A stretch of DNA of 55,983 nt, filler included, from Stramenopiles sp. TOSAG23-6 (Eukaryota): assembly GCA_900128565.1 (NCBI GenBank). It is 4 parts of 4 records of this genome, joined end to end, with 100 filler letters (N's around TTAATTAATTAA, not from the genome) between each part and the next. Parts side by side here need not be neighbours in the genome. Positions count along the whole stretch, not along the records: positions 1 to 13,961 come from LT636152.1; positions 14,062 to 28,015 come from LT636153.1; positions 28,116 to 42,004 come from LT636154.1; positions 42,105 to 55,983 come from LT636155.1. One strand, given 5' to 3'. The translations under genes were made by a program, and so were the position numbers. Of this stretch, positions 56 to 49,957 are shown one piece after another. The stretch's first letter is position 1; every line of letters begins with the position of its first letter. The notes beneath the pieces were generated by a model. The model saw only the letters and a list, made by a program, of their open reading frames with translations, was not told the origin of the DNA and ran no database searches.

Positions 56-2068
56 ACGGCATTGCATTTCCCAAAAAGAAACAATTAAAACGTTGGATAA
101 AACTAGAAGAAGAAGCAAAAAAAAGAGATCATCGAGTCATTGGAAAAAAACAAAAATTATTTGCATTTCATGAATCAAGTCCTGTATGTTTTATATGAAT
201 TTCCAATTTAATTTTTTATTTTTTTTATTTTATTTTTTTTTTAAATTTTTTTTTATTTTTTATTTTTTCATACGAAATTTCGTACCTAACGATTTTTTTT
301 TTTTTTTGAAATTTTTTTTCACACTACATGGTGCTGCATTTTTTTTACCTCATGGGACAAGAATATTTCAAAATTTGCTTTTATTTCTACGTTCTGAATA
401 TGCAATACGTGGATATAATGAGGTAATGACTCCATTAATGTTTAATCCTTCATTATGGAATACTTCTGGGCATTTAACACATTATCAAGAAAATATGTTT
501 TCTGTTGTTCCCGGCTCTACTAACCCTAACCCTACTAACCCTAACCCTAATTGTATGGAACAACATGAAAGAATGAATTTAAAACCAATGAACTGTCCAG
601 CTCATTGTGTTATTTATGGAATGGAAGGGTCAAGGTCATATAGACAATTGCCATTACGAATTGCTGATTGTATGTTTTCATTATTTTTTACTTTTTATTT
701 TTGAAAAAAAAAAAAAATTTTAATTTAAAAATTTTTTTTTTTTCATAATTTTTTAAATTTTTTATTTTTTTTTAATTTTTTTTAAATTTTTTTAAAATTT
801 TTTTTATATTCTTATAAAACATGTACTGCAATTCATCGAAATGAATTATCAGGAGCATTGGGAGGTCTTACTCGTCTTCGACATTTCCATCAGGACGATG
901 CACATATTTTCTGTACTCATGATCAAATTTCATCTGAAATATCTGATTGTTTGGATTTTGTTGAAAAAGTTTATTCTTTATTAGGGTTTACAATCAATTT
1001 AAAATTATCAACTCGACCTGAGAAGTCATTAAGTGGTAATAATTATAATACTAATAATTATAATAATGATGATAATTATAATTATAATAGTAATAATAGT
1101 AATAATAATTATAATAGTAATAATAATGATGATAATAATAATAATACTAATAATGATAGTAATGATAAAAATAATACTACTAATACTAATACTAATAATA
1201 ATAATGATAATAATACTAATAATTATAATACTAATAATAATAATGATAATAGTAACCCTGGAACAATAGTTGGCTCAGATATAGATTGGATGAATGCTGA
1301 AAATTCATTATCTGAAGCATTAACAAAAAAATATGGAAAAAATGGATGGTCTGTTGATCCAGGAGAGGGTGCATTTTATGGTCCAAAAATTGATGTGATT
1401 GTGACAGATGCTCTTAATAGAAAACATGTACGTTTTTTTCATTATGAATTTCACATTTTTTTTTTTTTTTTTTTTTTTTTTCAAAAATTTATTAGTTTTT
1501 TTTTCATAGTAAATTTCGTACCTAACGATTTTTTTTCTCAAAATTTTGAAATATTTTTCCAAAATACATGAACAAACTGCAGGTAAATTTCCTGTTTGGT
1601 TAAGTCCAAGACATTGCTCAATTATACCAATATCAAACGAAACTCATGGTGAGTTTGCAAAAGCAATTTGTAATAAAATGGTACGAAATCATATTTATGC
1701 AGATATTGATGATAGTGCAAATACATTGAATAAGCGTGTGAGAGATGCACAAATAAGTCAATATGTACGTTTTTTTTTCAATTTTTTTTTCGTACGAAAT
1801 TTTGTACCTAACAAATTTTTAATTTTTTTTTTCGTACAAAGAAATTCTAATCATTTGTTTTTTTAAATATTTCTTTACAAAACATAATTATGTTATTATT
1901 GTAGGTGATGAAGAAATTGGAGATTGGAGTGTGGGTAATGATGTCGAGAATGTTTTTGTAAATATCCGAAAACGTGATGGTGACGTCATTGGAAAAAAAA
2001 AATTATCAGAATTTATGAATCATATTCAAAATGAGATTTCGTGTCCTGAACCTTTTGTTGTCTCATAA
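56..2068 (+). CDS. TARS: Threonyl-tRNA synthetase, 5'-truncated; exons 56-183, 330-669, 823-1427, 1570-1764, 1886-2068
   Basis: Spliced translation gives [97 protein letters not shown]. The class II motif-3 segment (about 50 aa) is absent. Confidence 0.95.
184..329 (+). other. Non-canonical intron GT...CAT (palindrome+CTAAC at 271-290)
   Basis: cct|gtatgtttt...ctacat|ggt restores conserved SPG. There is no AG anywhere in the intron. Confidence 0.9.
521..550 (+). repeat. Interstitial telomere-type (CCCTAA)n tract inside a ThrRS exon (one of roughly 30 in the window)
   Basis: taaccctaaccctactaaccctaaccctaa encoding [10 protein letters not shown]. Confidence 0.85.
670..822 (+). other. Non-canonical intron GT...CAT (no recognisable palindrome)
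   Basis: gat t|gtatgtttt...aaaacat|gt act restores [10 protein letters not shown]. Confidence 0.88.
1428..1569 (+). other. Non-canonical intron GT...CAT (possibly two introns collapsed)
   Basis: cat|gtacgtttt...aaatttcgtacctaac...aaaatacat|gaa. The join is in frame but skips a conserved segment. Confidence 0.7.
1765..1885 (+). other. Non-canonical intron GT...CAT
   Basis: caa tat|gtacgtttt...aaaacat|aat tat gtt restores QYNYVIIVG. Confidence 0.88.
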
Positions 2069-2507
2069 CCTTTTGGTCCCTTTTGGTTTTGGTATATTTA
2101 TTGTATTGGGAATGTATACACCATAAAAAAATTGAAAGAAATAAAATTCATGAAAATTAAATTTATTTTTCGTTTTGTTGGTGTTGTTACAAAACAATTC
2201 AATCAAAAATAATTTCATTTTTTTTTTTTGATACCCTTTTTCTGGATATTATATATATATGAATACACTCATATTGTGTATACACAAAATTAAATGTCTT
2301 TTCATTTTTTCATATCTAAATTTTTTGATTTTTTGTTAAAAAATAAAAGTATAAAAAAATAATAGTAGAAATTTAAAGTTGGATGTACAACAAAAAATGC
2401 ATAACATTGCAAAGCAAAGCAAAGCAAAATAAATTCATATATTCACTTCATCATCATATATTGGACAAATCTGTTTTTGCCCAAACACACAGTAACAAAT
2501 TAACAAA

Positions 2508-48475: not shown

Positions 48476-48886
48476 GTATGTTCCATAGATAGTCTACATT
48501 TTTTTTTACATTCAACATTCGAAATGTGTTTTTTTAGTTGTATTGTTGTATACCATACGGTAACAATGATGTTTCACAACATTTCGTGTTTTTTTTTTTC
48601 ACAAATTGTATAAAAATCCAAATCTTTAATACCTGTCCCAGCAGACACTGGATAAGCTTGAAGTAATTGATACATATTTTTTCGTTTTGAGTAAATTGCT
48701 TCATACATTTATTTTTCTACAGATATTTCAAAATTTTGATATTTTTGTTAGGTATGAAATTTCGTACGAAAAGCAAACCAAAAAAAAAAAAAAAAAAAAA
48801 AAATTCATGATTAAAAAATTAAAATTAAAATTCATGATTAAAAAAAAATTAAAAAAAATTAAAATTCATGATAAAATAAAACATAC

Positions 48887-49957
48887 AAGAATGAATTCCA
48901 CCTGATAATTGAGACACACTAGAAGCTATACCTAGACTTTTTAGATATCCTGACGCTTTCTCACATCGAATGCCACCTGTGCAATACATGTATTATAGGA
49001 AAATAGTTTAAAAAAAAAAAAAAATTGTTAGGTTCAAAATAAAGTTAGGGTTAGGTTAGGGGTTATTAAAATTGCAAAAAAAAAAATTAATTTTTTTTTC
49101 CTTTTTTTTTACAATTTTTTTTAGATTCTTAAAACCTACATATAAACATCTGCATCTATCAGTTGTTCTTTATTTGAATTGACCCATTCAGGAAATTGTG
49201 CAAAACATCTGATTTTAGGATTAATTGCACCCTTGAATGAACCAACAGCAACTTCATAATGATTTCGTGTATCAATGAGAATCTGCCGATTTTTTTTATT
49301 TTTTTTATTTTTTTTATTTTTTGATTGGTAAGGCAAATTACTCGCCAAATTGTCATTATTTTGATATTTTGTAGTTTTTGTAGTCTTGGTAGAGTGTAGT
49401 CCATCAATTTCATTTTGGGGGGATGAATGTTGTTTTTCTTGTCCTCTATTATTAGCTTCATTAGCTTCATTAGTTACAGTAGAACAAACGTTGTTTACGT
49501 CATAATCTACATTGACTTTACACGTTTTTGTTTGACGGCTTTCAGCATCTTCTTGACATCGAAGAATTGCCTGATGAAATTCCTTTGGTGTTAAATGTGT
49601 CCCACCACAGCCACCAAGAGAAGACGGAAGAAATCGTTTCATTTCAGTACCAGTGCTGGTAATCTCGGAGCACTGACGGATAAATAGTTTCCCATCGAAT
49701 GGACACTTGACAGCTCTACTTATTTTAAACTGAATATTTCCATCTCCGAATCTAGCATCCTTTTTTAAAATATCACGATATTCTCTTGTGTGTTTAGGAA
49801 GACCACTGAGAAGACCATTGATGCCTTCTTTAGCAAGACGAATTCGTCCAGAAAGTTTTAATTTTTTACAAATTTCAGTCTGAGATTTTGACACCTCGTC
49901 AACGTTGTCCACATTATGGTACTTATAAAAGAGAATTACTTCTAAATCTTCAGGCAT
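48887..49957 (-). CDS. TSTD2/TrhO(YceA)-like rhodanese; exons 49957-49140, 48987-48887; 3' end not found
   Basis: [49 protein letters not shown]. Confidence 0.9.
48988..49139 (-). other. Non-canonical intron GT...CAT, telomere-type repeats in place of the palindrome
   Basis: tat at|gtaggtttt...aacctaac...aatacat|g tat tgc restores the active-site [10 protein letters not shown]. No AG after the branch motif. Confidence 0.9.

Follow-up and report, generated by a model that had tools for sequence, protein, structure and literature searches.

A repeated intron family with AT 3' ends in a marine stramenopile, probably removed by a U2-type spliceosome

INTRODUCTION

The AG that closes an intron is among the most constant signals of eukaryotic genes, and the few lineages that break it in bulk (Fritillaria, Amoebophrya and the euglenids) reveal what a spliceosome can tolerate. 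The introner-like elements of fungi are repeated, lie only in sense within genes, lack clear transposon hallmarks and have canonical GT-AG ends, and their spread by reverse splicing has been discussed. The introns described here likewise form a repeated family within genes, whereas their ends are AT.

The closest precedents are the AG-AT and AG-AC introns of Fritillaria and the introners of Amoebophrya. In the available sections of PMC11282704 and PMC13326754, the MITE-derived introns of Fritillaria borealis form, like the present family, a large transposon-like population with non-AG 3' ends that include AT; they are removed by an adapted U2 spliceosome, and a duplication of U2AF is reported in this animal. 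Most of those introns begin with AG (AG-AC, AG-AT), and their ends are diverse, whereas here the 5' and branch signals are canonical and the last base alone departs; the host, moreover, is a stramenopile and not a tunicate. The introner elements of Amoebophrya, as presented in the accessible part of PMC7789003, resemble ours as repeated non-canonical introns of a marine protist with direct repeats that blur the splice register. They have no conserved terminal dinucleotides, and inverted repeats of 8–20 nt join their ends in a hairpin, whereas our copies have conserved ends and no significant predicted fold. With the introners of Micromonas and Aureococcus and other transposon-derived families, as far as the excerpts of PMC11282704 and PMC12130899 describe them, the family shares similar short introns in unrelated genes, splice signals carried by each copy, short direct repeats at the borders of many copies and an aquatic protist host. 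Those families are GT/GC...AG introns whose AG often comes from the target duplication, whereas here the end is AT, terminal inverted repeats appear weak (one of six copies tested) and no autonomous partner was identified. Finally, the portion of PMC1557818 available to us describes rare animal GT-AT and AT-AT introns, of U12 and U2 type, with terminal dinucleotides identical to those found here; they demonstrate that introns closing in AT can be processed by spliceosomes, but they number a handful per genome, whereas in our 56 kb AT-ending introns are the majority class and belong to a single sequence family.

RESULTS

One intron family recurs in unrelated genes

We analysed a 55,983-nt stretch of DNA (filler included; hereafter the window) composed of four contigs of the AT-rich marine stramenopile Stramenopiles sp. 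TOSAG23-6, and found one repeated intron family throughout. Its core of ~95 nt has GTAYGTTTT at the 5' end, an inner CCTAAC branch-like box and AATACAT at the 3' end. A profile scan of the window returned 30 copies at E ≤ 0.01 in 56 kb (nine of these matches being the copies used to train the profile), a density of ~0.5 copies per kb, and agreed with the first-pass annotation that copies lie on all four contigs. The shared RTAYGTTTT start and AAYAYAT end claimed there are genuine and greatly exceed chance: the window has 20 occurrences of GTACCTAAC against 0.16 expected, 12 of CCTAAC...AAYAYAT against 0.20, and two of the CCTAAC-type pattern with a final G against 0.13. Beyond the window, a search for the core motif returned no match in viral contigs and a single match, judged to be due to chance, in a Bacteroidales MAG. 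Although pairwise identity between copies is only 54–79%, so that they diverge by 21–46%, GTAYGT, CCTAAC and the terminal AT remain invariant or near-invariant columns of the consensus. The host genes, encoding threonyl-tRNA synthetase (ThrRS) and ceramidase-like, TRAPPC10, EGF, UPF0176 and IQ/ankyrin proteins, are unrelated, and one sequence is common to many of their introns, as in introners. Since the introns are copies of one repeated element, the AT end is a trait inherited within the family and not a property across unrelated introns.

The previous list of 26 AT-ending introns (22 complete, four partial) was reduced to 23 placeable 3' termini, comprising 18 complete in-frame introns, two composite joins and three partial copies at contig ends; AG-ending 3' termini in the family number three or four. 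Some boundaries had been off by 1–2 nt and were corrected to 670–822, 15249–15341 and 48988–49139. The complete introns, of 88–226 nt, are:

184–329, + strand: ThrRS, GT...CAT, 146 nt, phase 0, without any AG
670–822, + strand: ThrRS, GT...CAT, 153 nt, phase 1; degenerate copy without the CCTAAC box
1765–1885, + strand: ThrRS, GT...CAT, 121 nt, phase 0
3074–3178, − strand: gene family unassigned, GT...CAT, 105 nt, phase 1
3525–3618, − strand: GTTTG...TAT, 94 nt, phase 0; the AG found 4 nt further downstream does not keep the frame
11255–11371, − strand: TRAPPC10, GT...CAT, 117 nt; a TAG inside the intron, 18 nt from its end, offers a canonical alternative in frame
13013–13115, − strand: TRAPPC10, GT...GAT, 103 nt; in-frame 3' end 5 nt past the family-homologous end
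13192–13299, − strand: TRAPPC10, GT...CAT, 108 nt, phase 2
13504–13608, − strand: TRAPPC10, GA...TAT, 105 nt, phase 2; holds a CCCTAA run
14934–15159, + strand: acid-ceramidase-like gene, AT...CAT, 226 nt; two tandem family copies
15249–15341, + strand: acid-ceramidase-like gene, GT...CAT, 93 nt, phase 1; product unique to register 0
15456–15592, + strand: acid-ceramidase-like gene, AT...TAT, 137 nt
15717–15812, + strand: acid-ceramidase-like gene, GT...CAT, 96 nt
18748–18841, + strand: IQ/ankyrin giant gene, GT...CAT, 94 nt
18979–19066, + strand: IQ/ankyrin giant gene, GC...CAT, 88 nt; ATACAG 25 nt downstream gives a stop
38691–38791, + strand: teneurin-like EGF gene, GT...TAT, 101 nt
39210–39300, + strand: EGF gene, GT...CAT, 91 nt; junction codon is the first Cys of the EGF profile
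48988–49139, − strand: UPF0176/rhodanese gene, GT...CAT, 152 nt, phase 2; CCCTAA-like runs inside

Two segments formerly taken for complete introns, 1428–1569 and 40794–40891, proved to be composite or chimeric, and the assembly has at least these two bad joins at family copies; the second enters the middle of a PIF1-like helicase, and the two genes it connects are unrelated. These and the remaining family copies are:

1428–1569, + strand: composite made up of two family copies, with the intervening 48-residue ThrRS exon missing from the window
40794–40891, + strand: family copy where an EGF reading frame has been joined, chimerically and out of frame, to a PIF1-like helicase fragment
1–55, + strand: 3' half of a copy, cut by a contig end, with a final CAT
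13909–13961, − strand: 3' half of a copy, cut by a contig end, with a final CAT
28116–28170, + strand: 3' half of a copy, cut by a contig end, with a final CAT
10494–10557, + strand: partial copy, antisense within the open TRAPPC10 reading frame
51993–52065, + strand: family copy with G at the position homologous to the last base (...AATACAG)
54402–54562, + strand: in-frame GT...AG intron made of two family copies in tandem
44435–44509, + strand: family copy that has diverged in its 3' part and closes with CAG

Excision at the family ends restores reading frames

Excision of the 18 complete copies at the ends defined by the family joins long flanking frames in frame. In an automatic test, 15 of 18 family-defined boundary pairs connected the longest upstream and downstream frames; of the other three, 3525–3618 fits at its corrected boundary, one fits in the phase set by the preceding intron and one is the chimeric join. 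Two introns beyond the tested pairs are also frame-compatible, and retention gave in-frame stops in all 18 tested pairs.

The ThrRS gene, which encodes a normally essential enzyme, provided junctions that could be aligned with homologues. Junctions 183/330, 669/823 and 1764/1886 align without gaps to a relative, P0002 (67% identical), and their Pfam positions run on without a break (40 to 44 across three residues; 52/53 to 54), with flanking exons that are open and conserved. The motif restoration claimed by the first-pass annotation thus holds for ThrRS by both P0002 and Pfam and for the first position of the EGF profile, while at the UPF0176/rhodanese junction the rhodanese profile support is weak (E = 0.17). 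A TRAPPC10 exon matches profile positions 203–227. A metagenome scan with ThrRS exon 2 found only a 29%-identical relative, and a search for homologous proteins of near lengths yielded no near-identical fragment spanning a junction (best match 48% identical). A search of sequencing runs listed two metatranscriptomes that contain 5–6% of the sampled words, together with three metagenome runs. For the acid-ceramidase-like gene, homologue searches with an exon, one of them at a very strict threshold, gave no match, nor did PDB searches with exons of 29 and 37 residues; junction 15248/15342 therefore rests on frame, on the family boundary and on a spacing in the human enzyme. We also observed that the database protein for the ThrRS of this window extends into introns and omits the conserved HRNE motif.

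These data bear on whether the inserts are removed at all. They might stay in, as transposons in dead or dying genes or as artefacts of single-cell amplification or assembly, and it fits this idea that the two composite joins sit at family copies, that four of the eight contig ends fall inside copies and that every retained copy would truncate its protein. However, all 18 tested introns are sense to the host gene, with only one antisense copy seen; the frame fit far exceeds the one-in-three expected by chance; the flanking exons, those of ThrRS among them, are open and conserved; and splice-like signals are kept despite the divergence between copies. We regard permanent retention as very improbable.

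A shifted canonical register is unlikely to explain the AT ends

Among the 18 introns the 5' dinucleotide is GT in 14, AT in two and GC and GA in one each, with GTTTG as a further variant of the 5' end, and the 3' trinucleotide is CAT in 13, TAT in four and GAT in one; none ends in AG. At register 0 the 16 copies tabulated are GT-AT (13), AT-AT (two) and GC-AT (one), and nine of the 16 offer no GT-AG, GC-AG or AT-AC ends at any shift from −3 to +3. The absence of any AG from intron 184–329, reported earlier, was reproduced. The segments have to be removed exactly at these non-AG ends.

The earlier argument for a single register also held in every step: shifts of −1 to −3 introduce a stop at 15249–15341, a shift of +1 introduces one at 3178–3074, and a shift of +2 turns the glycine of the ThrRS SPG motif into V, at a cost of 6.3 bits in a profile of 50 full-length ThrRS. 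The product of intron 18748–18841 is likewise unique to register 0, because it has no flanking microhomology. The exon-final AT equals the intron-final AT in 10 of 16 copies, the others having CT, TT, TA, AG, CA or AA, which leaves room for the idea that copies preceded by an exon AT are really AT-AC introns shifted by two bases (ATGTAYG...ATAC) and that only a minority are odd. Seven of the 16 copies indeed give an identical product at shift −2. For the other nine this is impossible; at the same shift the proline of SPG becomes H (4.9 bits lost), a stop appears in 15249–15341, the TAT-ending copies would become AT-AT, and the shifted 5' site matches no known consensus, whereas register 0 gives GTAYGT. 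A uniform AT-AC register was rejected on the nine incompatible copies, the lost proline and the stop, and we judge the AT-AC reading as a whole improbable.

We also considered neighbouring AG dinucleotides. In 11 of 16 copies the next AG downstream either breaks the frame or leads to a stop, and the rival acceptor at 15362 would drop seven residues after intron 15249–15341. An in-frame, open AG alternative lies nearby in five of 16 copies, which are therefore not individually proven; 3074–3178 has such a canonical alternative because an in-frame CAG follows 3 nt downstream. An AG lies between the branch box and the AT end in five of 15 copies, where a scanning spliceosome would be expected to prefer it. 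Use of the first YAT after the branch was rejected as a rule, because many copies have a conserved YAT ~15 nt before the end that is used.

Splice signals point to a spliceosome of U2 type

U2-type branch sites are of the CTRAY type, lie 20–50 nt before the 3' end and are followed by a pyrimidine tract. The family has a GTAYGT 5' consensus, with GT in 14 of 18 introns, a CCTAAC-like box in 15 of 16 copies, and T-runs in the consensus; in 14 of 15 copies the branch A is separated from the end by 33–46 nt, which is U2-like spacing. Only the terminal AG of U2-type introns is missing in all 18. ATACAG ends of non-family introns are present at 7471 and 48335, as noted previously, and an AG-ending intron with the same 5' consensus, GTATGTTTT, is found at 47905.

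The U12-type consensus is RTATCCTT at the 5' site and TCCTTAAC at the branch, with short spacing to the 3' end. Membership in this class was rejected, as no copy has ATCC and CCTAAC is 33–46 nt from the end. The same introns might nevertheless be handled by a diverged spliceosome of the minor (U12-like) type or by some other dedicated RNA pathway: their first base is R (G/A) and their last two are AT, their 5' site is conserved over nine bases and their branch box highly conserved, as in minor introns, and the U12 machinery is reported to splice GT-AT and AT-AN combinations, with GT-AT and AT-AT counted among the rare termini of U12-type introns in the available portion of PMC1557818. Against this, the 5' site is without the ATCC core, the branch spacing is not the short one of minor introns, AG-ending introns in the same DNA share the 5' consensus and AG-ending family copies exist, and we consider such a pathway unlikely.

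An Rfam scan of the window gave no matches, snRNAs included. Group II introns were rejected on length (88–226 nt) and the lack of an Rfam match; they are six-domain ribozymes of several hundred nt, and their GUGYG/AY ends are only superficially alike. A stable RNA fold was sought in the copies and none was found (z −0.04 to −1.8), and the consensus fold, with five invariant pairs, shows no covariation. This speaks against an excision guided by structure, of the Amoebophrya or euglenid type, and together with the conserved termini it led us to reject that reading.

The copies contain some symmetry. A central 16-nt palindrome is conserved in the family, and a terminal inverted repeat of at least 8 nt occurs in one of six copies tested, the rest having only the 5–6 nt palindrome ATGTA/TACAT, exon AT included. 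Such palindromes, and the need for exact removal, would suit DNA-level excision of germline-limited, IES-like segments, or an element-specific non-spliceosomal RNA endonuclease with a ligase. The conserved positions, however, are the three classical splice signals, the longer inverted repeat was found in that single copy of the six tested, no stable fold is found, and we know of no precedent in stramenopiles; this explanation seems to us highly improbable.

DISCUSSION

The observation of AT-ending introns as a whole was confirmed from the sequence. Because removal must be exact, nine of the 16 tabulated copies have canonical ends in no register and the signals are otherwise spliceosomal, a spliceosome that accepts AT, as proposed in the first-pass annotation, is the best reading, although that proposal had missed the single introner-like family and the two composites. 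We infer removal at the RNA level, the GT...AT register and the machinery from these sequence features. It is reasonably probable that the segments are copies of one introner-like repeated element with U2-type 5' and branch signals and a last base of T in place of G, and that a YAT-tolerant U2-type spliceosome cuts them out.

Each copy would bring its own 5' site (GTAYGT, then TTT), a CTRAY-type CCTAAC branch box, T-rich tracts and a YAT end, standing where the ordinary introns of this organism have YAG. The copies would be transcribed with the host gene and then excised precisely, starting at the first G (in some copies A) and finishing at the final T. The major (U2-type) spliceosome is the most likely agent, and its reading of the last base would have to be relaxed in this lineage from G to G/U. 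The AT end would have been passed down from a founder element, and the usual exon-final AT could reflect either a 2-nt target duplication or a preferred insertion or proto-splice site. As the copies are sense-only and their similarity stops exactly at the intron borders, the family may have spread by reverse splicing. Extrapolated from its density in the window, it could number thousands of copies per genome.

A full-text literature search, which cannot prove absence, found no description of an AT-ending intron family in stramenopiles, in line with the earlier view that none had been described. AT-ending introns lie beyond the models of standard gene finders and, if real, would distort gene calls in related genomes when unrecognised. 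Single-cell genomes of marine stramenopiles of MAST-3 lineages are described, in the available part of PMC5778133, as having low gene counts and apparent pseudogenes; that such introns contribute to these is speculation.

If AT-ending removal is borne out by RNA data, the organism would have an unusual splicing rule, and the family would add a stramenopile example of intron gain through a repeated element. We suggest tentatively that a marine stramenopile lineage has re-tuned its choice of 3' site, independently of tunicates, so that AU is used routinely beside AG for a genome-wide introner family. Since the last base alone is altered while textbook 5' and branch signals are kept, such a lineage would be a clean natural experiment on second-step recognition of the 3' splice site.

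A repeated intron family in the window

The window comprises contig spans 1-13961, 14062-28015, 28116-42004 and 42105-55983 with N spacers between. The DNA is eukaryotic, with a GC content of 22-41%, and we took the host to be a MAST-lineage marine stramenopile from the GSMAST32-prefixed EukProt name of the predicted CDS. Pfam identified a threonyl-tRNA synthetase (ThrRS), an acid-ceramidase/NAAA-like gene, TRAPPC10, a UPF0176/rhodanese gene, a teneurin-like EGF protein and an IQ protein, with further matches to a cyclin, a GPR180-like protein, an LRR protein, a Sel1/MYND protein and ankyrin repeats. 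The ThrRS catalytic domain carries a long Asn-rich low-complexity insert (1032-1260).

Alignment of 16 candidate introns gave the family consensus GTAYGTTTT(CAT.ATGAATTTC), a T-run, CATACGAAATTTYGTACCTAAC, a second T-run and GAAATATTTTTCCAAAATACAT. Nine copies served to build a profile, which matched 30 places in the window at E<=0.01, the training copies among them. Motif counts across the window exceed expectation: 20 for GTACCTAAC (0.16 expected), 12 for CCTAAC followed 25-50 nt on by AAYAYAT (0.20 expected) and 2 for the CCTAAC...AAYAYA pattern closing in G (0.13 expected). Pairwise identity among 11 copies is 54-79%, by which measure the family appears old or fast-evolving; despite this divergence, invariant or near-invariant columns include the 5' GTAYGT, the CCTAAC box and the final AT. 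Copies found with the family profile occupy four of the eight contig ends, so the assembly breaks at the repeat, as expected if it is high-copy:

1-55, family copy at a contig end
13909-13961, family copy at a contig end
28116-28170, family copy at a contig end
55917-55983, family copy at a contig end

Several genes, including a 2784-residue IQ/ankyrin ORF and the Sel1/MYND, LRR, GPR180-like and cyclin ORFs, are long frames without introns; the family introns are thus unevenly spread, clustered in the most AT-rich genes:

19034-27385, long intronless reading frame
30235-31230, long intronless reading frame
31593-33086, long intronless reading frame
33240-35057, long intronless reading frame
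45997-47355, long intronless reading frame

A telomere-like 12-mer, CCCTAACCCTAA, has 25 sites in the window against 0 expected. At the sites inspected its orientation is sense with respect to the local gene; exonic occurrences encode Asn-Pro repeats, and it is also present within family introns. Example sites are:

539-550, plus strand, CCCTAACCCTAA
8660-8671, minus strand, CCCTAACCCTAA
13576-13593, minus strand, CCCTAACCCTAA
53146-53184, plus strand, CCCTAACCCTAA

Need for exact removal of family segments

Intron boundaries were drawn from the family alignment, independently of reading frames. Fifteen of 18 boundary pairs joined the longest upstream to the longest downstream frame, where chance would give one in three, and retention produced an in-frame stop in every segment tested (18 boundary pairs). 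Of the three remaining pairs, 3618-3525 fits the frame at its corrected boundary, where an AG lying 4 nt beyond fails to; 18979-19066 is in frame given the phase set by the preceding intron; and 40794-40891 joins two different genes. Two introns outside this set fit as well: 13608-13504, and 13115-13013, whose in-frame end is GAT, 5 nt past the family-homologous end. Judged by these frames, the family segments must be removed, and exactly.

The first-pass annotation had claimed that removal restores conserved motifs. For ThrRS, a 755-residue relative (P0002), 67% identical over exon 2, aligned without gaps across junctions 183/330, 669/823 and 1764/1886. On this alignment, homology fixes the three junctions to the residue, and Pfam profile positions are continuous over two of them. 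A profile made from 50 full-length ThrRS sequences allowed only shifts of -1 to +1 for intron 184-329, -1 to +3 for 670-822 and -2 to 0 for 1765-1885. In the EGF gene, the codon at junction 39209/39301 is position 1 of the EGF_Teneurin profile; the rhodanese junction gave weak profile matches (E 0.024 and 0.17). The TRAPPC10 exon preceding 13115 covers profile positions 203-227, and exon 1 of the ceramidase-like gene ends at residue 269 of chain 5u81_A, its small downstream exons having no PDB match.

Termini and alternative acceptors

We tabulated termini for 16 introns over shifts of -3 to +3. At the family-defined boundaries (register 0) the ends were GT-AT in 13, AT-AT in two and GC-AT in one. 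An AT-AC intron yielding the same product, at shift -2, is possible in only 7/16, and nine of the 16 have no GT-AG, GC-AG or AT-AC at any shift, ruling out canonical termini for most introns. ThrRS homology alone leaves register -1 or 0. The earlier register argument could be reproduced: shifts of -1 to -3 run into a stop at 15249-15341, as does +1 at 3178-3074. Shift -1 is ruled out by 15249-15341 only, an intron with a competing in-frame AG acceptor at 15362, use of which would drop seven residues. As for AGs in the downstream exon, the next one breaks the frame or runs into a stop in 11/16 introns, leaving at least 11 of 16 without a usable AG there. In the other five (3178, 11371, 15249, 15717 and 39210) it keeps an open frame, and its use at 39210 would delete the EGF motif.

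Kind of intron

In all but its last base, the family looks like a U2-type intron. Its 5' site is GTAYGT, a CTRAY-type box places the putative branch A 33-46 nt from the intron end in 14/15 copies, T-tracts follow this box, and 17 of 18 introns have Y at position -3 (C 13, T 4, G 1). At 7471 and 48335, ordinary introns of this DNA have ...ATACAG as their 3' end, as previously noted and here confirmed, and the family copy at 52065 has G at the homologous last base; the AT end therefore sits exactly where AG sits elsewhere. At 54402-54562, a pair of family copies forms an in-frame GT...AG intron. Two features misfit a simple scanning model: an AG between branch box and intron end in 5/15 copies, and, in many copies, a conserved YAT ~15 nt upstream of the end used.

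The minor-intron consensus is absent from the family alignment, and an Rfam search of the window gave no match. Structure-guided excision in the Amoebophrya (introns covered in PMC7789003) or euglenid manner is unsupported: single-copy folds did not exceed shuffled sequences in stability (z -0.04 to -1.8), and the consensus fold had five invariant pairs with no covariation.

A near-perfect 16-nt palindrome, GTACGAAATTTCGTAC, lies directly before the CCTAAC box (e.g. 1790-1812, 39245-39267 and 40832-40853). Its CGUAC is complementary to the 5' GUACG of the intron; its pairs are invariant or one-side variable and offer no compensatory change by which a helix could be judged.

Origin of the family

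The exon ends in AT before 10/16 introns, forming a 2-nt direct repeat with the intron-final AT and, with GTA...TAC, a 5-6 nt palindrome. According to the review PMC11282704, the AG-AC and AG-AT introns of Fritillaria are MITE-derived. In the window, a terminal inverted repeat of >=8 nt occurs in only one of six copies, so a MITE origin is no more than a candidate. Copies are sense-oriented and similarity stops at the intron borders, which would fit spread by reverse splicing equally with a DNA transposon under selection. Only one antisense copy was found, a partial one at 10494-10557 within the open TRAPPC10 reading frame, with CCCTAACCCTAAT on both sides (region 10440-10640).

Probable assembly artefacts and annotation failure

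Segment 1428-1569 in ThrRS is a composite of two family copies and lacks 48 residues, the class II motif 3 region, present in P0002 between the flanking exons; most simply, it is probably an assembly collapse. The family copy at 40794-40891 connects the EGF reading frame, out of frame, with the middle of a PIF1-like helicase (Pfam positions 105-157); this region (40794-41300) is a chimeric join or else a rearrangement at the repeat. The window's own database ThrRS protein (P0001, 174-2065) reads into introns, uses forced AG acceptors and loses the conserved HRNE motif; standard annotation thus fails on family introns.

Comparison with known introns

Full-text literature searches did not turn up any account of stramenopile intron families that end in AT. 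Of two MAST genome papers, the text of PMC5778133 mentions introns only in gene-prediction methods and that of PMC12614181 contains neither 'intron' nor 'splic'. Rare GT-AT and AT-AT introns occur in animals (PMC1557818), AG-AC and AG-AT are the commonest intron ends in Fritillaria (PMC11282704), whose non-canonical 3' ends are reportedly recognised by divergent U2AF paralogues (PMC13326754), and curation in an introner survey took AG and AC as familiar 3' ends (PMC12130899).

Protein and contig searches returned no near-identical transcript-derived sequence. The AT-ending introns claimed in the first-pass annotation are a real observation; RNA-level splicing, its GT...AT register and its machinery are what we infer from the DNA. 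We lean, with slightly better than even confidence, towards an introner-like family spliced at YAT ends as the best reading. Pending RNA confirmation, such a family would be of high interest.
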